A stretch of DNA of 64,000 bases, from the IMG/VR virus record IMGVR_UViG_2721755711_000002. One strand, given 5' to 3'. This document shows positions 1,918 to 62,892 of this stretch, piece by piece; within the stretch, counting starts at the first letter, position 1, and the number at the start of each line of letters is the position of its first letter. Source of the DNA: a virus (Duplodnaviria > Heunggongvirae > Uroviricota > Caudoviricetes). The notes beneath the pieces were generated by a model. It was not told where the DNA came from, did not search any database, and saw only the letters and a list, made by a program, of their open reading frames with translations. Both the position numbers and the translations under genes were made by a program.

Positions 1918-2620
1918 ACGAAGCACTGTCCGGCAGCGACGGCTGGCACGAAACCTCGTCGTCGATATTGACGAGGATGATGTGCTGAAAATTATCGCTA
2001 AACTGGGTGGTTCAAAAAGCCAGATCCGTAAAGCCTGGGGCGTGGCGCTGAAAAGAGCCGCGTCCGCACTGCGGATGAAGGCCATGGCAGAGTTTAAAAA
2101 ACAGGTTGCGCCACGCAGCCAGAAAATGATCAAAAAACGTGTCCTGAATGCTTTTATCATTCGTCGAAATGGCGATGAGTTTGATGAGGTAAAGGTGTGG
2201 TTCGGCCTGAACGCCATCAAAGTGCGTGATCTGCGCGGACGCATCAGTGGGGGGCGACGCGGTGAACGCCATCAGCTGCGTGATGAACGGGGGCGTTTTG
2301 CACCGGCTTCCCGTCGCAGGAAAGCGCCGGAGATACGTTTTAAGCCCGCCGGGGAGGCAATACCGGTCACCACCTGGTCAGGTGACGAGGCTTTTGTTAA
2401 TGAGTTTGAGTCTGAAAACCGGCGCGGACGCATTTCACGACGTAAGACGGTACTGGTCCGGCAGGCATCCGGACGACGAAGGGTGCGCGAAGCGGAAATT
2501 GATATTTATGAAGCCATGCTGAACCGTATAGAGGATTTTGTTTTCCCTGATGCGGAAGCACTGATCCTGAAAAATTTTGAGCATGAACTGAAATTCCGGG
2601 TATTTAAGGGGATGGAATGA
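1898..2620 (+). CDS. Putative tail completion / head-tail adaptor protein (lambda Z or P2 R position)
   Basis: Position between FII-like and baseplate genes; basic protein; internal start at M21 of ORF 1838..2620. Confidence 0.35.
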   Translation: MTVREHERSTVRQRRLARNLVVDIDEDDVLKIIAKLGGSKSQIRKAWGVALKRAASALRMKAMAEFKKQVAPRSQKMIKKRVLNAFIIRRNGDEFDEVKVWFGLNAIKVRDLRGRISGGRRGERHQLRDERGRFAPASRRRKAPEIRFKPAGEAIPVTTWSGDEAFVNEFESENRRGRISRRKTVLVRQASGRRRVREAEIDIYEAMLNRIEDFVFPDAEALILKNFEHELKFRVFKGME

Positions 2621-3183
2621 TGGAACCATTGATGATGGGAACCTGGCATCAGGCAGTGATTGACAGTCTGAAACAAATTCCCTGGGTGGAAGATGCCGAT
2701 GAGTACCCGGAAAAAGTGACGCAACTGGTGACGCCTGCCGTGTTTGTGGATGTACCCGGCTGGGACAAGGCTCAGTTTGCCGACGGGCAGACACGGGTCA
2801 CGCTGAAATGCGATCTGTTTGTGGTGACTGATCGGGCCGGAAAGACGGAAAACGTGCCAAAACCGCAGATATTTGCCCGCTGTCTGGCAATGGATTTATC
2901 TGACTGGATTGATGGAGCCACGTTCGGGCTGGATAACGTTGATCCGGCGGTTTTTATTGATGCTGAGGTGGATACCTTCGACCGACTGCTGGACGACTAC
3001 ATCGTTTTCCGTGTCTCTTTTGAACAGGACATTCCGGTCGGCGAAGATCCGTTTGCGGCTCCGGCAGGTGTGCCGTTACAGGAAGTCTGGCTGGGTAAAG
3101 TACCGGAAACCGGTAAAAAGCATGTGCAGGATTATCGTCTTATCTGGAAAGCGGAGGGCACCGGCGATGAGTCTGGCGGATGA
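2617..3183 (+). CDS. Putative tail completion protein (lambda U or P2 S position)
   Basis: ATGA overlap with upstream gene; position immediately before gpV-like gene. Confidence 0.35.
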   Translation: MMEPLMMGTWHQAVIDSLKQIPWVEDADEYPEKVTQLVTPAVFVDVPGWDKAQFADGQTRVTLKCDLFVVTDRAGKTENVPKPQIFARCLAMDLSDWIDGATFGLDNVDPAVFIDAEVDTFDRLLDDYIVFRVSFEQDIPVGEDPFAAPAGVPLQEVWLGKVPETGKKHVQDYRLIWKAEGTGDESGG

Positions 3184-3790
3184 AGTGGCAGAGTTACGCC
3201 GCAGGGTGGCGGACATGATCCGTCGCGGCGTGGTGGAAGAGGTGATCCCGGGTAACCCGGTGATGGTTCGGGTGGATATCGGAGATGTGCTTTCGCCGCC
3301 GTTGCCCTGGATTCAGATGCAGTCCGGGCGTTACATGCAGGTCAGTAATTACCCGGCACCAGGAGATGCGGTCACGGTGATATCGGAGGCGGGCGATCTG
3401 CGTAACGGTCGTGTGTATCCAGGGGCGAATATTGACGCCATTCCTGTACCGGCGGGCAGTGAACACGAGCATGTTATTTTGTTTGATACCGGAACGGAAA
3501 TCCGTTACGACCGTAAAGCCAATGCCCTGTCCATCACGCTGGCTGAAGGCGGCAGCTATAAAATCACCGGCAGGGGAACGCTGGACGGTCCGGTGGAAAT
3601 CACGGATACCCTGACTGTGCAGGGAGAAACGAAGATTAATGCCGATACGCAGGTTCTGGGCAATATCGGTGCCTCACAGGAGATCACCGATAAAACCGGC
3701 AGCATGAGTAAAATTCGCGAAATTTATAATACTCATGATCACCCTGGCGACAGCGGGGGAACCACCCGTAAACCTAACCAGGAAATGTGA
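3167..3790 (+). CDS. Baseplate spike/assembly protein, P2 gpV-like
   Basis: C-terminal HDHPGDSGGTTRKP motif typical of P2 gpV; start at M99 of ORF 2873..3790. Confidence 0.8.
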   Translation: MSLADEVAELRRRVADMIRRGVVEEVIPGNPVMVRVDIGDVLSPPLPWIQMQSGRYMQVSNYPAPGDAVTVISEAGDLRNGRVYPGANIDAIPVPAGSEHEHVILFDTGTEIRYDRKANALSITLAEGGSYKITGRGTLDGPVEITDTLTVQGETKINADTQVLGNIGASQEITDKTGSMSKIREIYNTHDHPGDSGGTTRKPNQEM

Positions 3791-3812
3791 ACGCCGCACC
3801 GGCGTTTTTTTT
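3791..3812 (+). terminator. Intrinsic terminator-like hairpin between V-like and W-like genes (possible attenuator)
   Basis: acgccg-cac-cggcgt stem-loop followed by 8 T. Confidence 0.5.
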
Positions 3813-3824
3813 CGGAAAAATTTC

Positions 3825-4181
3825 ATGATTGGTATTGATTCCGCCACCGGCAGATATCTGCACGGTAACGAACATCTGCGTCAGTCCGTCACCGATATTT
3901 TGTCAACACCAGTCGGCAGCCGGGTACTTCTCAGGGAATACGGCAGCAGGCTGTTCAGTCTGCTTGATAACCCGCAGGATGATTTCACACGGGTGAGGAT
4001 TGTCCGTGAGACGGTTACCGCTCTTGAACGCTGGGAACCGAGACTGACGATCCGCCGTGTGGAGGTGAGCTTCGGCGGTGAGGGAAATGTCATGTTGACG
4101 CTTTTGGGCGTGAATAACGAAACACAGGAAACAATTCGTCTGGAGGAAATCAGAATTGACAACGTCTCAGGCCATTATTGA
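3825..4181 (+). CDS. Baseplate wedge protein, P2 gpW / gp25-like
   Basis: ILSTPVGSRVLLREYGS...WEPRL matches P2 W pattern; start at M31 of ORF 3735..4181. Confidence 0.75.
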   Translation: MIGIDSATGRYLHGNEHLRQSVTDILSTPVGSRVLLREYGSRLFSLLDNPQDDFTRVRIVRETVTALERWEPRLTIRRVEVSFGGEGNVMLTLLGVNNETQETIRLEEIRIDNVSGHY

Positions 4182-5070
4182 TTTGTCCGCGATACCTGTA
4201 CCGGATGCGGTGGAGGTGCCGGACACCGCTGTGCTGGTCACTCAGATAGTGGCGAAATATCAGGAACTGGACACGTTGTTTTCGGCCCTGGTGGAATCAG
4301 ATCCGGCGTATAAATGGGCGGAGGCGCTTGCTTTTCGGGTGGCGCTGATGCGCCAGCAGGTCAATGATGCAGTCCGGGCTGTACTGCTTGCCAGTGCCCG
4401 CAGGAACGATCTGGATCAGATTGGTGCGAATTTTCAGGTGCAACGTCTGGTGATTACTCCGGCAGATGACAGCACTATCCCGCCCACACCGGCGGTGTAT
4501 GAAGGGGATGATGCCTTTCGTGAGCGTATTCAGTTGTCGTGGGCGCGACTCAGTACAGCCGGTGCGAAAAATGCTTACCATTATTTTGCACAGAGTGCTG
4601 ATCCTGATGTGCTGGATGTGAAAGCCTACGGGCCGGAAACGCATTCACAGGAAGGGCGTGTTTTTCTTTATGTGTTATCGCGAACCGGAAACGGTACGGC
4701 ATCGCAACCCCTGCTGGATAAGGTGGCAGCGTCAGTCAATGATGATGAAATTCGACCTCTGACGGATTTTGTCAGTGTCCGTGCGGCAGAAATTATTCCC
4801 TACGATGTGGTTGCAGATATTCATATTCCCTACGGGCTGGATGGTGAACTGGTGATGAAAAATGCCCGTCAGGCGCTGCAGACATACACTGACAGTGTTC
4901 ACCGGATTGGTTCTGTGGCGTCCTGCTCCGGTATGGACGGAGCCCTGCATCAGACGGGGGTGATTACGGTGGCACTGAAATCGCCGGCCAGTGATATTGT
5001 TCCGGCGATGGGACAGGCTCCATGGTGTCGCTCAGTCACACTGAACAAGGTGGAGGCAACCGATGAATGA
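4156..5070 (+). CDS. Baseplate assembly protein, P2 gpJ-like
   Basis: IIDL...P-P-VVE, GANF...L-ITPADDSTIPPTPAV as in P2 J; apparent TTG start at 4156 with RBS ggagg. Confidence 0.8.
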   Translation: MTTSQAIIDLSAIPVPDAVEVPDTAVLVTQIVAKYQELDTLFSALVESDPAYKWAEALAFRVALMRQQVNDAVRAVLLASARRNDLDQIGANFQVQRLVITPADDSTIPPTPAVYEGDDAFRERIQLSWARLSTAGAKNAYHYFAQSADPDVLDVKAYGPETHSQEGRVFLYVLSRTGNGTASQPLLDKVAASVNDDEIRPLTDFVSVRAAEIIPYDVVADIHIPYGLDGELVMKNARQALQTYTDSVHRIGSVASCSGMDGALHQTGVITVALKSPASDIVPAMGQAPWCRSVTLNKVEATDE

Positions 5071-55453: not shown

Positions 55454-55879
55454 TCAATGCGCGACCACGGCATTTCCCGCCGGGCCGCCACGATTCATCT
55501 GATTGAAACCAGCAATCGCCACTGCGACAAAATCATCAGCGTCTCTCACCAGTCGTTCCCGCGTCTCCACCAGTTCCCGAAACCAGGCTGAACTGTGGCT
55601 GCGCATTCGGGCCACCAGCAGAGGTGGCATTGCTTTTTCGATCGCTGGTAACAACGCCTGAATTTTTTTAACCGCATCAGGAGTGTCTTTCTCCACCCAG
55701 CGGAAAATTTTCTGGGTGTTACGGCCCAGGGCTTCCGGATGGCTGTCGTCGTACAATTCCGGGAACGTCATACCGAGTTCGAAATACGCTTTGGTAATTT
55801 TCGCAGCCGGTACTTTCTCGCCGTCTGGATGCGCCCAGGCATTCATCGCCATGCGGATGTGTTCATGCTTGATTTTCAT
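55454..55879 (-). CDS. Putative CII-like regulatory protein
   Basis: Position between cro-like gene and O-like gene. Confidence 0.35.
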   Translation of the reverse strand: MKIKHEHIRMAMNAWAHPDGEKVPAAKITKAYFELGMTFPELYDDSHPEALGRNTQKIFRWVEKDTPDAVKKIQALLPAIEKAMPPLLVARMRSHSSAWFRELVETRERLVRDADDFVAVAIAGFNQMNRGGPAGNAVVAH

Positions 55880-56135
55880 GAATCAACTCCGGCGCATTTG
55901 ATGTGTTAACCTTACATCCAACAGGTAAACCGTCGGTTGGGTTAGGGTATTTATCAGGGCGCAATTCATGCGGAGTCACTCCCCAGCCAAGCGCCTCACA
56001 TGCTGGAATGACCTCCTCCGCAGGAACTCGTTTTTTAAACCACCCACTTATAGTTTGTGGAGTTTTACCAAGACGACGCCCTAACTCTGATTGGCTCATT
56101 ATCGACAGGATTTTCACTTGAGTACTTTTTTGCAT
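55863..56135 (-). CDS. Cro-like HTH regulator
   Basis: HTH SQSELGRRLGKTPQTISGW; divergent from repressor; RBS ggaggg. Confidence 0.55.
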   Translation of the reverse strand: MQKSTQVKILSIMSQSELGRRLGKTPQTISGWFKKRVPAEEVIPACEALGWGVTPHELRPDKYPNPTDGLPVGCKVNTSNAPELIHENQA

Positions 56136-56147
56136 GTTTCCCTCCAA

Positions 56148-56255: not shown

Positions 56256-56261
56256 GTGGTG

Positions 56262-56654
56262 ATGATCTTTGTAAAACGCCTTCAGCAGGTGTTGCAGGAA
56301 TTGAATATAAACCAGTCAGAGCTGGGAAGACGTCTTGGTGTAAAACCCCAATCCGTGCAAGGTTGGTTGAAAGGCGTGATGCCAAGAATGGATAAATTGG
56401 AAAAATTAGCAGAGCTCTCACAACATCCCGTCCATTGGTTCTTTATGGAAGAAGAAACTCTCGGCGATAAGATGGCTGTATCCAGTAATGACAACCAACC
56501 GCAACTTACAGAACAACAACGAAAAATCATATCGCTTTTAGATGAGTTACCTCAAAGCGACGCAGAGCAGATCATTCGGGATATGGAGCAAAAACGCGAT
56601 TTCTATAAACGCAAACTTGAAGAGTTACTGCGGCAGAAAAACAAAACTGCCTGA
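56262..56654 (+). CDS. Prophage repressor (CI-like, HTH; no peptidase domain)
   Basis: HTH NQSELGRRLGVKPQSVQGW; divergent from cro-like gene. Confidence 0.6.
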   Translation: MIFVKRLQQVLQELNINQSELGRRLGVKPQSVQGWLKGVMPRMDKLEKLAELSQHPVHWFFMEEETLGDKMAVSSNDNQPQLTEQQRKIISLLDELPQSDAEQIIRDMEQKRDFYKRKLEELLRQKNKTA

Positions 56655-56700: not shown

Positions 56701-57060
56701 TTATAATCCCACCAGGCTTTCCAAGGGGATACCAAATTGATTATGAAGACGGCGAATCATTGGTAACGTAAGGCTTCTGGTGCCATTCAACACCTCGTAA
56801 ACCCGATTTTTTTTTCCAATTGCGGGTTCCAAATCTTTCACGGTCAGCCCCTGCTGTTCCATGCGAAATCTTATAGCTTCAATTGGGGATGGTGGCTCAA
56901 TGGGATAATGTTTTTTTTCATATTCCGCTATTAGCAAACACATCACCTCAAAGAAATCCCCCTCAGGCGTGTTAATTTCCGGCTCATTGTCGAACATGGG
57001 CTCAACAGCACGCAACGCGGCTTCATAATCTTGCTCTGTACGAATAGGTTTGATGTTCAT
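56701..57060 (-). CDS. higA: Antitoxin HigA (HTH)
   Basis: 119 aa, C-terminal HTH; directly downstream of HigB-like toxin. Confidence 0.7.
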   Translation of the reverse strand: MNIKPIRTEQDYEAALRAVEPMFDNEPEINTPEGDFFEVMCLLIAEYEKKHYPIEPPSPIEAIRFRMEQQGLTVKDLEPAIGKKNRVYEVLNGTRSLTLPMIRRLHNQFGIPLESLVGL

Positions 57061-57062
57061 GC

Positions 57063-57365
57063 TTACTCCAGTTCAATGGTATCAGCATCAATGGCATCGT
57101 ATTCCTTGTGGTTTCCGATGAATTTAACAAATACCCATCCTCGCTGATACGCAATTGCAACAATTAAACGGTAATGATTACCTTTTATGTTGAATACCAC
57201 GCGCCGGTTTTTCAATATACTGGCCGTTCGGTATTGTGCCTTAATGTCTGCCGGGCTTTTCCAGTCAGCCTTTGCTGCCTCATCCACCCATGCCCTTAGC
57301 GGTTGTTCTGCATCGGGATTCTCCGCCCAAAAATCCCTAAGCGTTTTAACTGAGATGATCTTCAT
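57063..57365 (-). CDS. higB: Toxin HigB (RelE/ParE superfamily)
   Basis: 100 aa; ...NIKGNHYRLIVAIAYQRGWVFVKFIGNHKEYD resembles HigB C-terminus; toxin-first order. Confidence 0.7.
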   Translation of the reverse strand: MKIISVKTLRDFWAENPDAEQPLRAWVDEAAKADWKSPADIKAQYRTASILKNRRVVFNIKGNHYRLIVAIAYQRGWVFVKFIGNHKEYDAIDADTIELE

Positions 57366-57470: not shown

Positions 57471-57640
57471 CAACCAACTCCCCGCCCCACAGAACGCAGG
57501 GCAATACTTCGAGTTACCAGGCAGTGGTCAGGGGTTAAGTAGCCAGCCCGAGGCGTAAGAACATGACGGCAGGGTTCAACTTTAACTATGCAGCAGGTTT
57601 TTGTTCCGCCACCCCGGCGTTAAAGGGAAATGAGGTCAGC

Positions 57641-57793
57641 ATGGATACTATCGATCTTGGCAACAACAAATCTCTGGTATACGGCGTGTTTCCAAACCAG
57701 GACGGTACGTTCACCGCGATGACGTATACCAAAAGCAAAACGTTTAAAACCGAAGCTGGCGCGCGTCGCTGGTTAGCCAGAAATACTGACTGA
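57641..57793 (+). CDS. Small early protein
   Basis: 50 aa from M27 of ORF 57563..57793; first gene after pL-like promoter. Confidence 0.3.
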   Translation: MDTIDLGNNKSLVYGVFPNQDGTFTAMTYTKSKTFKTEAGARRWLARNTD

Positions 57794-57804
57794 TGAGGTT
57801 AACG

Positions 57805-58440
57805 ATGGAATTTAAAGACTTACCGCTATCAATCCAGGAGATTGCAGCACACACACTACGTCAACATCTGAACGAAGCTATGGCTGAATCTGCAAAGAAA
57901 GAAACCATTGATAACATGGCTCGTAATGTGCACGATGCGTTTACCGGATTGTATTTCTGTGCGTCTGTAAATAAACACGACCCAGAGAGTGTGGCAAAGA
58001 AAATTGCAGAAACGACAGTGCAAAACATCAATACGAAACAAACCGAAGACGAAATTGACCAGCCTGCCAGTGAACAAAAGAAAGAAAAATCGCCATATGC
58101 GGGGAACATGTTTGTTTATGACAAACTTATCCGAATTCGTGGCGAAATTCCGACTGAATACCTGGCAAAAATTCACCAGGCATTACTTAAAAATCTGGAA
58201 ACGGAAGTATTTGATGGCAACACCAACGGCTCCTTCGTGGTGTCAGCCCTCACAAAAGAGTGGGATACAGATAATCGCCGGAATGTTGCTACATGGTTAT
58301 TCAGCAACAAAGCTGCTGCCCTGGAAGCTGCGGCCTGTATTTGCGACCTGCTAAGGACAGACCGCAAATACAACCTGGATGTGTATAGCTATATTTATGC
58401 TGAACACTATCCGCTCTGGATTGACTGGTTTAAAGGGTAA
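57805..58440 (+). CDS. Hypothetical early protein
   Basis: ~211 aa. Confidence 0.35.
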   Translation: MEFKDLPLSIQEIAAHTLRQHLNEAMAESAKKETIDNMARNVHDAFTGLYFCASVNKHDPESVAKKIAETTVQNINTKQTEDEIDQPASEQKKEKSPYAGNMFVYDKLIRIRGEIPTEYLAKIHQALLKNLETEVFDGNTNGSFVVSALTKEWDTDNRRNVATWLFSNKAAALEAAACICDLLRTDRKYNLDVYSYIYAEHYPLWIDWFKG

Positions 58441-58602
58441 CACCTGCGGGACCGAGCCGACCAGCACCACGATTATTTTATCCTCCATTAAGGGGTGAAT
58501 TAAAAATGGAGACCAACACGCTGCTACGTGTGGTCGTGCGCCGGACACGGATAACCTTCCGGCATGCTCTTTAACAATCTGGATATCCACAACAGCAATA
58601 AC

Positions 58603-59121
58603 CTACGGATTGCTGCTCAATGCTCTACCTATCTCTTCTTCAGATGGGGGCGGTATATAGTCATCATTGCGTTCAAATTTAAAGCGCGAATCACATTTCA
58701 GGCATTTAGAAATATGGAACTTATCATGCTCACCAATTTCAACAGGTTGAAGTATTGCTATTACACCATGCTGATAGCAATTGGGACAGGCATAGTAAAA
58801 ACATGTGTCTTCTTCGTCGAGGCTGTTCCTGAAAGCATAGACAAAATGCCCAAAACCAGTTTTGTGTATCGTATAGCATTCAAGTTTTCGATTACGCTCG
58901 TCAATTTCATGACATTTTTGCTTAAGCAAGAGTATTTCCTCGTACTGAAGCGCGAGCGTTTTCGCTAGCTCTGCGTTCTGTATTTGTAAGTCTGCCAGTT
59001 GGCGACGCATTTCGTAGACAGCCTTTTCACGTTCAGATTGGCTTTTTGCATCAAGTATTACCTGTAATAAATCAATCGAGACTTTAATTGCCGTTATTGA
59101 TGAAGTTATTCCAGATAGCAT
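58603..59121 (-). CDS. Coiled-coil protein with C-terminal Cys-rich zinc-finger-like motifs (cargo gene, opposite strand)
   Basis: CPNC...CLKC motifs; AT-rich; antisense to early operon; start uncertain. Confidence 0.35.
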   Translation of the reverse strand: MLSGITSSITAIKVSIDLLQVILDAKSQSEREKAVYEMRRQLADLQIQNAELAKTLALQYEEILLLKQKCHEIDERNRKLECYTIHKTGFGHFVYAFRNSLDEEDTCFYYACPNCYQHGVIAILQPVEIGEHDKFHISKCLKCDSRFKFERNDDYIPPPSEEEIGRALSSNP

Positions 59122-59656
59122 TCTTAACTCTCTTTGTTGTTGGGGTATCCGGATTATACAAATTTCTTGTCGTTGGGGAATGACGGAAACCACCTCGCCT
59201 GACGTGGTTAAAAGCAGGCACACAACGCGAAAGCGCACGGCGAAGGTTTCTTTTCCTTAGAAGGCTTGTCGTTAGATTTCTTCGACCGTGCACTTCCGGT
59301 TGTGGCAATCCGCGAAATGGCGCGGCGGTAAGTATGGCGGGTTATCCTTACCCCCATTGTGGCACCGGGTTGGCAGGTTGACCATACGCTTAAGTGACAA
59401 CCCCGCTACAACACTCCATGTTGATTTGTACCTTTGGCGGCATCAGTTTCATTGCTGGCTGATGTCCGCCCTTTTTAAAGTGAATTTTGTGATGCGGTGA
59501 ATGCGGCTCAGCGCACGCGGAACAGTTAAAAAGCGATTAGTTCCCCCGTATCGGGTGTTTATGGGTTCCCTGTATCCGGCGTTAATTGTTAACTGGTTAA
59601 CGTCACCTGGAGGCACCAGGCACCGCATCACAAAATTCATTGTTGAGGACGCGATA

Positions 59657-59845
59657 ATGGAAACGTTATTACTCAATTCCACTACGCCTGAAACTCGTTT
59701 TGAAATTGGCGTTATCACTGGCGATAAAACTTTTATTGAGGATGCCATTAACCAGATAAAGCATGAGCCGGATTCATTAAATAAGGTTTGCATTGTTTCA
59801 ATGATGGCCCGTTCACGCCTGATGCAAAAAGGATACTGGCAATGA
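59657..59845 (+). CDS. Small hypothetical protein
   Basis: 62 aa; RBS gagga. Confidence 0.3.
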   Translation: METLLLNSTTPETRFEIGVITGDKTFIEDAINQIKHEPDSLNKVCIVSMMARSRLMQKGYWQ

Positions 59846-60045
59846 ATACCACATTTGCACTTGTTCTGACGGTTTTTCTTGTTTCCGGTGAACCAGTTGA
59901 CATGGTTACTGGCGTATACAGCTCAATGAAAGAATGCATGGCTGCCGCAGATGAACAGAAAATTCCCGGTAACTGTTATCCGGTCGATAAAGTTATTCGC
60001 ATGGATAATAACGAAGTCCCGGCAGGACTTAAAACAGCACCGTAA
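59842..60045 (+). CDS. Small secreted/membrane protein
   Basis: N-terminal hydrophobic segment; ATGA coupling to upstream ORF. Confidence 0.35.
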   Translation: MNTTFALVLTVFLVSGEPVDMVTGVYSSMKECMAAADEQKIPGNCYPVDKVIRMDNNEVPAGLKTAP

Positions 60046-60122: not shown

Positions 60123-62579
60123 ATGAGCGCTGATAAAGAAGAAATTGCACTATATTACGAAGCCAAAAATGACAAAGTCAGAAAACGCCTTGGGATTAAA
60201 GGCGGTTTTTACTGGCGCACAGCAAAAAAATTATCGGTTGCAATATCACGCGGTGTTGTCGCAATGGACGATGCCGGATTTGACGAAGAGGATTTTAAAA
60301 AACCTGTTCGCGTCCATTTACCCATTGTGAATGACCTTCCTCCGGAAGGCGTGTTTGATACCGAATTCTGCAATCGATACGAAAAAGGCGGGGAAGATGG
60401 TATAACAATGGTATTTATTGAGACATCTCACTCTGCGCAGGACAAACCAGCCAGCACTGACAATACCAACGTCAACGGCGAAGACATGACGGAGATTGAG
60501 GAGAACATGCTCCTGCCGGTTTCAGGTCAGATTCTGCCTGTTCGATGGCTGGCACAGCACGGCAGCGAAAAACCGATCACACACGTTTCGCGGGACGAAC
60601 TGCGCGCATTACATAACGCACAGGATGAAAAACTTCCCGCCGTTACCGCTCTGGCCATCTCAAATAAAGCAGCGCAACTCGAACCGCTGGAAATTCGCGA
60701 TCTCCACAAACTGGTTCGTGACACGGACAAAGTTTTCCCTAATCCTGGTAATTCAGACCTGGGACTGATGACTGCTTTTTTCGAAGCATACCTGGGCGCT
60801 GACTACACCGATCGCGGTCTGCTGACAAAAGAGTGGATGAAAGGAAATCGTGTTTCACGCATTACCCGCACGGCTTCCGGTGCTAATGCCGGTGGAGGAA
60901 ACAAAACCGATCGCAATCCTAATTTAGTACACACCTTCGATACGCTGGATGTGGAGATTGCAGCGGCCACACTTCCGATGGATTTTAATATTTATGAAAT
61001 TCCGGGCAGCGTTTATCGTCGCGCAAAAGAAGTCGTCCGGAAGAAAGAAAGCCCGTTCAAAGAATGGTCCGCAGCACTTCGCGCAATCCCGGGTATCCTG
61101 GATTATTCCCGCGCCGCTATTTTTGCGCTTATCCGGAGCGCACACCCTGAATTTTATCATTACCCGGGACGCCTTCAGGGGTATATCAACGCCTACTTAA
61201 CGGAGACTGATCACGAGAACCCCAGCAAGGAAACTCTCACTGCTGCACGACATACACCGGAAAAAGATATCCTGGAAGAAGTTAACCGCGAGCTGGCTGC
61301 CGGGCAAGAAACAGAAGAAGAAAAAAATGATGAAGAAAAACCGCAACCGTCTGGCGTACTGGCAGATGAACAGGCAACGGCTGAAACAATGGAACCGGAT
61401 ACAACTGAACATCGCCAGGACACGCAATCGCTGGATACTCAGGAACAGGTAGATCCAGTTAATCAGGTGAAAGTTACCGCTGACGAAGTAAACAAAATTA
61501 TGCAGGCAGCCAATATCGGCCAGCCTGACGCCGATAAGTTGCTTGCGGCCTCTCGCGGTGAATTTGTTGCAGGGATTAGCGACCCGAATGATCCGAAATG
61601 GGTGAAGGGGATTGAAACCCGCGATTCAGTGAATCAGAACCAGCAAGAAACGGAACAGAACGACCAGAAAGCGGAACAAAACAGCCCAAATGCGTTACAA
61701 AACGAGCCAGAAACGAAACAACATGAACCAGCAGCGCAACAGGAACCGGAAAAAGCCTGCACCGTCTGCGGTCAGACCGGCAGCGGCAACTTCCCTGATT
61801 GTGGCGCGGTGATGGGCGACGCAACATACCTGGAAACATTCGATGAAGAGAATCAGGTTGAAGTTCAGGAAAATGATCCGGAGGAAATGGAAGGCGCTGA
61901 ACATCCACACAAGGAGAATGCTGGCAGCGCTCAGGACCACGCCAGCGATAATGAAACTGGCGAGGCGGCAGATCACTCAATTAAGGTGAACGGTCATCAC
62001 GAAATCACATCCACCAGCAGGACGTGTGACCATCTCATGATCGACCTCGAAACCATGGGAAAAAATCCTGATGCCCCGATTATCTCAATAGGTGCAATAT
62101 TTTTCGATCCGCAAACCGGAGATATGGGACCGGAATTTAGTAAGACTATCGATCTGGAAACTGCTGGCGGAGTCATTGATCGGGACACCATTAAATGGTG
62201 GCTGAAGCAATCACGCGAAGCGCAATCTGCCATTATGACCGATGAAATCCCGTTAGATGATGCACTGTTACAATTGCGAGAATTTATCGACGAAAACTCC
62301 GGTGAATTTTTTGTTCAGGTCTGGGGAAATGGAGCCAACTTCGACAACACGATTTTGCGCCGTTCATACGAACGGCAGGGGATCCCCTGCCCGTGGCGTT
62401 ACTACAACGATCGCGATGTACGCACAATTCTTGAACTGGAAAAAGCCATAGACTTCGATGCCAGAACGGCTATTCCATTCGAAGGCGTACCCCACAATGC
62501 GCTGGACGATGCCCGTCACCAGGCAAAACAAGTTTCAGCTATCTGGCAAAAACTGATCCCGAGTCAGGCTGATTTTTAA
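60123..62579 (+). CDS. Large early protein, RecE-like N-terminal region with C-terminal DEDDh-type 3'-5' exonuclease-like domain
   Basis: 818 aa; C-terminal motifs [25 protein letters not shown]; N-terminal block [17 protein letters not shown]...[10 protein letters not shown] resembles RecE as recalled. Confidence 0.5.
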
Positions 62580-62643: not shown

Positions 62644-62892
62644 ATGGCAAGACTTATTCTGCTCACTGAGTGGGCAAAAGAGGAATTCAGCGATCCGGTC
62701 CCGACTCCGGGCACGTTAAGTAAATACGCTAAAGCCGGAATGATATTTCCTCTCCCCAAAAAAGTTGGAAGACACTGGCGAGTGGATCCACGAGCTCGCT
62801 TTGTCGGAATGGTAAACAAGCCGGAGGTGATCGCCACAGATCACCCTGCTTTGAAGAGGATACTGGAAGATGGCGCGCCCGCGAAAATATAA
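62644..62892 (+). CDS. xis: Excisionase (Xis-like)
   Basis: 82 aa immediately upstream of and overlapping int; LTEW...FPLP pattern like lambda Xis. Confidence 0.55.
   Translation: MARLILLTEWAKEEFSDPVPTPGTLSKYAKAGMIFPLPKKVGRHWRVDPRARFVGMVNKPEVIATDHPALKRILEDGAPAKI

Follow-up and report, generated by a model that had tools for sequence, protein, structure and literature searches.

The right end of the DNA analysed here (IMG/VR virus record IMGVR_UViG_2721755711_000002, Caudoviricetes; 64,000 nt, the whole stretch being referred to below as the window) represents a lambdoid prophage's early-left arm in plus-strand orientation, with the gene order of the dicB operon in the cryptic prophage Qin of Escherichia coli K-12 and in phage Tritos. 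Within this operon, on the opposite strand, lies a gene for a protein of 172 amino acids (aa) which, judging by sequence comparison and a predicted structure, is clearly homologous to Rip1 (“ring interacting pore 1”), i.e., a divergent and so far unannotated member of this family. Its likeliest role is that of a single-protein anti-phage defence, carried as a self-contained “moron” antisense in the repressed dicB operon. Next to it stretches a non-coding interval, which is the long-known dicF/dicB RNA region of E. coli-type prophages, a plus-strand element separate from the rip1-like cassette. The coordinates of the features are collected in Table 1.

The first-pass annotation of this DNA placed here an AT-rich minus-strand open reading frame (ORF) at 58603..59121 or longer, encoding a coiled coil with the motifs CPNC and CLKC. 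Such an ORF does exist in both versions: 172 aa from an ATG, or 211 aa (58603-59238) from an in-frame GTG present in the ORF listing of the window. The ATG is the supported start, since the equivalent methionine begins the protein in all homologues aligned (alignments of 24 and of 62 sequences) and gene callers also report 172 aa on two other contigs with the identical protein. The GTG at 59238 was dropped: the homologues have no such extension, and it would overlap the promoter candidate. The content of guanine plus cytosine (GC) of the ORF is 40.3% vs. 49.7% in the whole window (45-50% in the flanks), in keeping with the AT-rich character ascribed to it. The “coiled coil” corresponds to one long predicted helix (residues 28-81); CPNC occupies residues 112-115 and CLKC residues 140-143. 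The four cysteines of these motifs (C112, C115, C140, and C143) are the only invariant columns in the alignments of both 24 and 62 members, and Y83, G91, Y95, and the L124-Q125 pair of the “ILQ(P)” motif are nearly invariant in the family. All the invariant and nearly invariant residues are present in the window protein. The gene is also antisense to the rightward operon, as was claimed, the ydfA/DUF1391 gene, the phrog_2151 gene, dicF, dicB, the DUF1482 gene, the exonuclease gene, xis, and int all being on the plus strand.

The affiliation of this protein with the Rip1 family follows from sequence comparisons at several levels. A word-indexed protein search returned near-identical sequences only; the family becomes visible through an exhaustive HMMER search, which yields, at E ≤ 1e-3, 245 representative clusters, with few exceptions of 140-175 aa and matched end to end. 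In the PHROGs collection, the protein matches phrog_1244, a family of unknown function, with E 5.5e-31. As a single sequence, it retrieves Rip1 from the Protein Data Bank (PDB entry 9oox) with E 3.6e-8 (phmmer), the next match having E 0.039, and a profile built from 24 family sequences finds the same entry with E 7.8e-34 over residues 14-159 of 164. The direct comparison with HK446_037 gives 23% identity with E 5e-11 (BLASTP), and the comparison of profiles with the HK446 Rip1 gives a probability of 99.7% (hhalign). Hence, the similarity to the characterised Rip1 of HK446 (9oox) is significant. A translated search for full-length relatives, at 23-32% identity, recovers them across phage genomes, e.g., in HK620 (hkaP), HK629/HK630, HK446, and several temperate phages of E. 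coli and Klebsiella; about 30 Mu-like phages of Pseudomonas carry them as well, including JBD30 (gp30), DMS3, D3112 (orf25), and MP38 (ORF25). In public records, the rip1-like gene is annotated as “hypothetical protein” only.

The predicted structure points to the same family. The AlphaFold2 (AF2) model obtained from the alignment of 62 sequences has a mean predicted local distance difference test (pLDDT) score of 92.4 and replaced the poor single-sequence model (pLDDT 55). It consists of a helix (residues 2-24), a long helix (28-81), and a small C-terminal beta / Cys4 zinc-ribbon domain built around C112, C115, C140, and C143, which aligns with the C-terminal half of Rip1. In a Foldseek search against the PDB, chains 9oox_M and 9oox_L were the sole significant matches (E 5e-7, probability 1.00; next E 0.13); superposition gave a template modelling (TM) score of 0.73 normalised on the target and a root-mean-square deviation of 3.4 A over 123 columns, so the model has the fold of the solved subunit. 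In the first helix, hydrophobic residues at 2, 5, 9, 12, 16, 19, and 23 follow heptad spacing, with a mean hydrophobicity of 0.26-0.40 and a hydrophobic moment of 0.25-0.33. The protein has no transmembrane segment: averaged over 18 consecutive residues, its hydrophobicity reaches 0.4 at most. The layout of an N-terminal amphipathic helix followed by the C-terminal half is therefore that of Rip1, and the roles of the two halves would be those described for the family.

Rip1 was described as a prophage anti-phage protein by Patel, McCarthy, Taylor et al. (Nature 651:1060, 2026), and the account below follows the review PMC13434031, with which the conference report PMC12908700 and the preprint bioRxiv 10.64898/2026.04.30.721860 agree. 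Rip1 alone is not toxic, infected cells round up, and escape mutations fall in the gene of the portal in Pseudomonas phages and in that of the small terminase in E. coli phages. Cryo-electron microscopy (cryo-EM) revealed 12 Rip1 subunits around an 11-mer ring of the small terminase; the N-terminal part of the protein is an amphipathic helix, the C-terminal half touches the terminase, and the complex, with a pore at its centre, makes liposomes leak dye. According to the same account, relatives of Rip1 are widespread in Proteobacteria and mostly prophage-borne. The entry 9oox is the cryo-EM structure of the Rip1 of Escherichia phage HK446 with the small terminase of Enterobacteria phage T6 and contains 12 Rip1 chains.

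The gene appears to be part of a discrete insertion, extending from the stop of the 215-aa phrog_2151 gene to the point where the homology to the ydfC-dicF intergenic region of Qin resumes. Alignment with K-12 Qin, phage Tritos, and the O157 prophage puts the right boundary near 59212. The megablast coverage by E. coli genomes begins at about 59165-59210, and the sequence from about 59212 onward is common to 4736 of the 5426 complete E. coli genomes. A scan of the minus strand found a TATAAT hexamer about 32 nt upstream of the rip1-like ATG, and a ribosome-binding-like motif, AAGAGAG (59127-59133), stands 5 nt ahead of it. E. coli strain 41 has the region of the promoter candidate unchanged, and the O157:H7 allele retains it in part. 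A terminator-like hairpin is located 68 nt beyond the rip1-like stop. The promoter, the gene, the terminator, a GC content lower than that of the surroundings, and the strand opposite to the operon together give the insertion the form of a moron; the predicted promoter, the hairpin, and the opposite strand likewise make it resemble an independently transcribed single-gene prophage cassette, as Rip1 is. The promoter and the terminator are predictions, since neither passed the stricter standard scan.

Table 1. Features of the right part of the window, from left to right (positions are those of the window)
Feature	Coordinates	Strand	Details
YdaS/YdaT-like pair	55454-56147	-	
DicA/CI-type helix-turn-helix (HTH) repressor gene	56256-56654		
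HigB/HigA toxin-antitoxin pair	56701-57365	-	HigB 100 aa, Pfam HigB_toxin E 4.8e-33; HTH antitoxin 119 aa
ydfA/DUF1391 gene	57563-57793	+	
phrog_2151 gene	57793-58440	+	215 aa
Inserted “moron” cassette (predicted)	58441..59211		hairpin, ORF, ribosome-binding site, and promoter; from alignment, megablast coverage, and GC
Terminator-like hairpin	58502..58535	-	GACCACACG-UAGCAG-CGUGUUGGUC, -13.9 kcal/mol, then UCCAUUUUU; local folding scan
rip1-like gene	58603..59121	-	172 aa; ATG 59121, stop 58603-58605
Candidate sigma-70 promoter	59153..59180	-	TTCCCC, 16 nt spacer, TATAAT (perfect -10, weak -35)
Conserved leader upstream of dicF	59212..59422	+	about 210 nt; equivalent to the Qin ydfC-dicF intergenic region
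DicF-like small RNA, divergent allele	59423..59471	+	terminator hairpin 59439-59466 and T-run
Structured dicF-dicB spacer / dicB leader	59473..59656	+	closing stem of about 27 bp, several hairpins inside; GAGGA Shine-Dalgarno before dicB
dicB	59657..59845	+	62 aa, cell-division inhibitor; Pfam DicB PF05358, NCBIfam CellDivInhibDicB
DUF1482 (ydfD-like) gene	59842-60045	+	
Exonuclease gene	60123-62579	+	818 aa
xis	62644-62892	+	
int	62870 to window end	+	

Seven genomic contexts of Rip1 homologues were examined, and in every one of them the gene is opposite to the flanking lytic genes. In HK446, it lies between N and cIII; in HK620 and HK630, hkaP is found between hkaQ/N and cIII (HK629 also carries hkaP). 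In the O157:H7 prophage, the homologue occupies the identical ydfA-dicB slot, in PhiR49_1 and vB_EcoM-689R2 it adjoins cI, and in the Pseudomonas Mu-like phages it is situated between terminase genes, on the minus strand inside a plus-strand operon. No neighbour is conserved across the seven contexts, and this lack of a common partner fits a single-gene system. The same contexts bear on a regulatory alternative, in which this zinc-ribbon, coiled-coil protein would control the dicBF operon or prophage induction, through nucleic-acid binding or an antisense effect of its mRNA, rather than act in defence. The gene is convergent with, and antisense to, the transcript needed for DicF and DicB, and zinc ribbons often bind nucleic acids; however, homologues reside in unrelated slots without dicBF (the Pseudomonas terminase genes and the N-cIII interval), so the function seems to travel with the gene and not with its neighbours, and the fold matches Rip1 only. 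A regulatory role of this kind is considered very improbable.

The allele found in the window is rare: it was detected in 2 of the 5426 complete E. coli genomes, and a peptide-pattern search did not find the protein in the 185,579 genomes of the GTDB species representatives. One of these two copies, in E. coli PapRG-04-4 (NZ_CP049201.1; L001, positions 4203-4722), differs by 2 mismatches in 519 nt and bears a premature stop, Q68*; RefSeq annotates only a 106-aa fragment of it. At the same time, the 99%-identical proteins P0001 and P0002 represent clusters with 45 and 39 members, respectively, and the exact window protein occurs on three other contigs. The identical 172-aa protein, together with the same DicF allele, is encoded on a prophage next to ompW (contigs of SRR19333116 and GCA_902847855.1) with a different immunity region (YdaS/YdaT, no higBA), which suggests that the cassette moves between related prophages. 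A more distant allele, WP_001509524.1 from O157:H7 (171 aa, 30% identical protein; L002, positions 3066-3581), sits in the same ydfA-dicB slot. At 74-78% identity, the 5' end of the rip1-like gene and its promoter have matches in about 800 of the 5426 complete E. coli genomes, the gene beyond having diverged past recognition at the DNA level; among these matches, it is the O157:H7-type allele for which the slot position was established.

The homology, the fold, the conserved Cys4 set, the architecture of the gene, and its genomic setting come from this analysis; that the gene is expressed in the lysogen, what triggers the protein, and that it forms pores and acts against phages are carried over from the family. 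The suggestion of the first-pass annotation that antisense cargo of early operons encodes exclusion or defence functions is supported by the Rip1 homologue, recognisable as 9oox by both sequence and fold, insofar as its function is that given in PMC13434031. In a lysogen, where the dicB operon is repressed, the rip1-like gene would be transcribed from its own promoter; being a self-contained cassette antisense in a repressed early operon, it could be expressed while the operon is off. Judging from its homology to the Rip1 of HK446 and of Pseudomonas, the protein would do no harm by itself. Once a superinfecting phage reaches late expression, its small terminase or portal rings would be bound by the C-terminal zinc-ribbon half, and a ring of about 12 Rip1 subunits may assemble on the phage ring as a template. 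The N-terminal amphipathic helices would then form a pore in the inner membrane, and the cell would be lost, by death or lysis, ahead of the maturation of progeny, i.e., the infection would be abortive.

A number of observations weigh against this reading or lend it no support. The reference databases are silent: Pfam yields nothing for the ORF at E ≤ 0.1 beyond a spurious coiled-coil match, the NCBIfam scan gave no meaningful match, and none of the families of PADLOC-DB v2 (2023), which is older than the description of Rip1, matched at E ≤ 1; none of these collections holds a model for the Rip1 family, hence the silence. The promoter candidate falls below the standard scan threshold, with a weak -35 element. 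The hairpin is imperfect as a terminator, since its U-run begins 4 nt after the stem, and the standard terminator scan did not report it. The nonsense mutation in the near-identical PapRG-04-4 allele implies that at least one host can do without the gene. Finally, with an identity of only 23-25% to the HK446 Rip1, the trigger specificity, and even the activity, may differ.

Part of this evidence would suit a decaying or neutral passenger, homologous to Rip1 yet inactive or unexpressed in the window prophage: in addition to the weak -35 element, one may point to the rarity of the allele in the E. coli genomes and the species representatives mentioned above and to the nonsense mutation in one of the two copies. 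Still, the frame is intact with all the invariant and nearly invariant family residues kept, there are the 99%-identical relatives and exact copies listed above, the TATAAT element is perfect and conserved in strain 41, and the comparison with strain 41 gives a ratio of non-synonymous to synonymous substitution rates (dN/dS) of 0.19, a value derived from only 7 differences. On balance, a passenger appears unlikely.

Another version of phage exclusion would act early, e.g., by blocking DNA injection in the manner of SieB/SieA or HK97 gp15, and not through a late pore. The hkaP gene of HK620 was deposited as a “putative superinfection exclusion protein”, and the early-left operon is a common slot for exclusion genes. 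An EMBO J paper of 2024, citing Tsao et al. 2018, states that the Pseudomonas homologue JBD30 gp30 “blocks phage genome injection”, a mechanism different from that of Rip1. However, the HK620 annotation is positional and was made without experiment, later structural and functional studies from the same laboratory report pore formation, with terminase or portal rings as the activators, and the window protein has neither a transmembrane segment nor a match to SieB or any other Pfam family, and so does not qualify as a SieB-type protein. An early block is thus regarded as quite improbable here, and the anti-phage defence of the Rip1 type remains the preferred interpretation of the gene.

The recurrent antisense placement of Rip1-family genes, in the dicB or pL operon in the window, HK446, and HK620 and beside the terminase genes in the Pseudomonas phages, may have a meaning of its own. 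It is possible, if doubtful, that it works as a self-immunity switch based on transcriptional interference in the lytic operon: upon induction, the lytic read-through would collide with the transcription of rip1 or produce antisense RNA, and rip1 would be shut off just as the terminase and portal rings of its own phage appear. In the window, the convergent arrangement would couple the expression of Rip1 inversely to that of DicF and DicB.

The interval to the right of the cassette had been taken in the first pass for about 400 nt of GC-rich, non-coding sequence, possibly an sRNA (small RNA) or promoter region. The absence of conserved coding capacity is borne out: the same interval is non-coding in the annotated K-12 Qin and phage Tritos, and an 11-nt indel in the spacer means that no reading frame is conserved through it in K-12, Tritos, and O157. 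An N-terminally extended DicB (ATG 59501, 114 aa) was dropped on account of this 11-nt indel in the homologues. The alleged GC-richness does not hold, as the GC content of 59240-59650 is 50.6% vs. 49.7% in the window; the stretch is GC-rich relative to the rip1-like ORF alone and average relative to the window. As to its nature, the sRNA-or-promoter guess is supported: the interval contains a DicF-like sRNA with a terminator hairpin and a structured dicB leader, and the promoter candidate lies just to its left. The Rfam scan, run at permissive thresholds, did return matches to DicF and STnc100, but both are below the gathering score.

Three parts can be distinguished in this RNA region. In the leader, long runs of invariant positions are common to the window, K-12 Qin, Tritos, and O157, and no Rfam family matched it; folding of 59212-59476, a span that takes in the DicF hairpin, gives a z-score of -2.84. 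The DicF-like element matches RF00039 over its full length (positions 1-52) with 38.7 bits and E 4.4e-6, the gathering score being 48, and aligns column for column with the annotated dicF of K-12 and Tritos; it stands between the ydfC position and dicB and ends in a rho-independent terminator, as DicF does. Compared with K-12, 8 nt are missing from its 5' single-stranded part, its loop is different, and its terminator stem is stronger (-21.0 vs. -15.9 kcal/mol). The window does not include the ftsZ of its host; in RNAduplex predictions with the K-12 ftsZ region from -25 to +15, the window DicF gave -18.4 kcal/mol, no better than shuffled controls, with 45% of the dinucleotide shuffles being as good, and the K-12 DicF -23.4 kcal/mol, marginally better than shuffles, with 7% of them as good, so that even with the true positive this test has little power. 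Complete E. coli genomes carrying this allele at ≥99% identity number 14, and no exact match to it was found in the GTDB species-representative genomes.

The dicF-dicB spacer is strongly folded into a multi-branched structure, with a minimum free energy of -72.7 kcal/mol and a z-score of -4.95 (0 of 200 shuffles as stable). Its closing stem joins 59473-59500 with 59620-59648 (TTTTAAAGTGAATTTTGTGATGCGGTG paired with CACCGCATCACAAAATTCATTGTTGAGG), and the differences in the stem among the four homologues keep the pairing through G-U; relative to K-12, Tritos, and O157, the spacer of the window carries an insertion of 11 nt. The STnc100 match spans 59473-59676 with 35.3 bits and E 3.2e-5 (gathering score 47). 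DicF is reported (Faubladier et al. 1990) to arise both by termination and by cleavage of the dicB-operon transcript by RNase III and RNase E; the long stem would be a natural substrate of RNase III. Overall, this RNA region is already known; its DicF allele is unusual, and the non-coding part needs no new explanation.

Among the neighbouring genes, dicB passes the curated cut-offs over residues 1-62 of 62, both in Pfam (99.8 bits, cut-off 27) and in NCBIfam (131.9 bits, cut-off 100). The higBA pair, flanked by the repressor gene and ydfA, is the operon's second cassette on the opposite strand and is absent from otherwise similar prophages, i.e., those of L012/L013 (SRR19333116 and GCA_902847855.1), L001 (E. 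coli PapRG-04-4), and L007. The 818-aa protein encoded farther to the right combines an Exonuc_VIII N-terminal region with an Rv2179c-like 3'-5' exoribonuclease domain. Its gene (2543-4999 in the copy on L012) is split on one other contig into 258-aa and 542-aa products, and its counterpart in an O157:H7 strain has an internal stop and is labelled a pseudogene in the annotation.

Overall, the rip1-like gene is an annotation catch in an already characterised family and not a new kind of system: a member of the Rip1 family, which joins sensor and effector against phages in one protein and was described in 2026, had been missed by Pfam, NCBIfam, and PADLOC. The ydfA-dicF interval of the dicB-type prophages seems to be a recurrent slot for Rip1-like cargo, and a variant only 23% identical may be useful for asking how the C-terminal domain sets the specificity of the trigger. 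The prophage would thereby pack several host-affecting functions into a short stretch: HigBA, Rip1, DicF, DicB, and a YdfD-like protein.

Compared with the known systems, the locus as a whole resembles the dicBF locus of Qin in K-12 (ydfABC-dicF-dicB-ydfD): the gene order is the same, with the leader, DicF with its terminator, the spacer, dicB, and the DUF1482 gene, and the RNA flanks are near-identical. The window differs in having the rip1-like cassette upstream of the leader and a 215-aa phrog_2151 gene in place of ydfB/ydfC. Among the phage morons, Tab of JBD26 was considered as a counterpart for its slot, which is that of the Pseudomonas Rip1 homologues at the terminase genes. Like Rip1, it is a prophage-expressed minus-strand moron with its own promoter, acting late, on virion morphogenesis proteins. 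It was dropped as an unrelated protein of 83 residues, targeting the tape-measure protein, needing an anti-Tab partner, and forming no pores; it has no reported homologues beyond the close relatives of JBD26, and JBD26 does not appear among the 60 listed of 61 tblastn matches of the window protein, even at E ≤ 10. Much closer are JBD30 gp30 and its counterparts in DMS3 and D3112 (orf25) of Casadabanvirus, matching over 89-91% of the length at 27% identity (tblastn E 6e-7 for JBD30 and DMS3, 4e-7 for D3112). The gp30-type moron likewise lies on the minus strand within a plus-strand operon, and phage resistance is reported for it; its host, Pseudomonas, is different. The system nearest to the window gene is the HK446 Rip1 itself (9oox). 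The two proteins are only 23-25% identical, the window protein is extended at the C-terminus by about 20 residues (DDYIPPPSEEEIGRALSSNP), as are the O157-type alleles, and its gene occupies a different slot, between the gene at the ydfC position and dicF. At the same time, the family is the same by profile and predicted fold, the lengths are similar (164 aa in HK446 vs. 172 aa in the window), and the parts follow in the same order, i.e., an N-terminal amphipathic helix, a long helix, and a C-terminal CxxC...CxxC region with the ILQ motif; in both cases, the gene takes the form of a single-gene prophage cassette, antisense inside an early-left operon.

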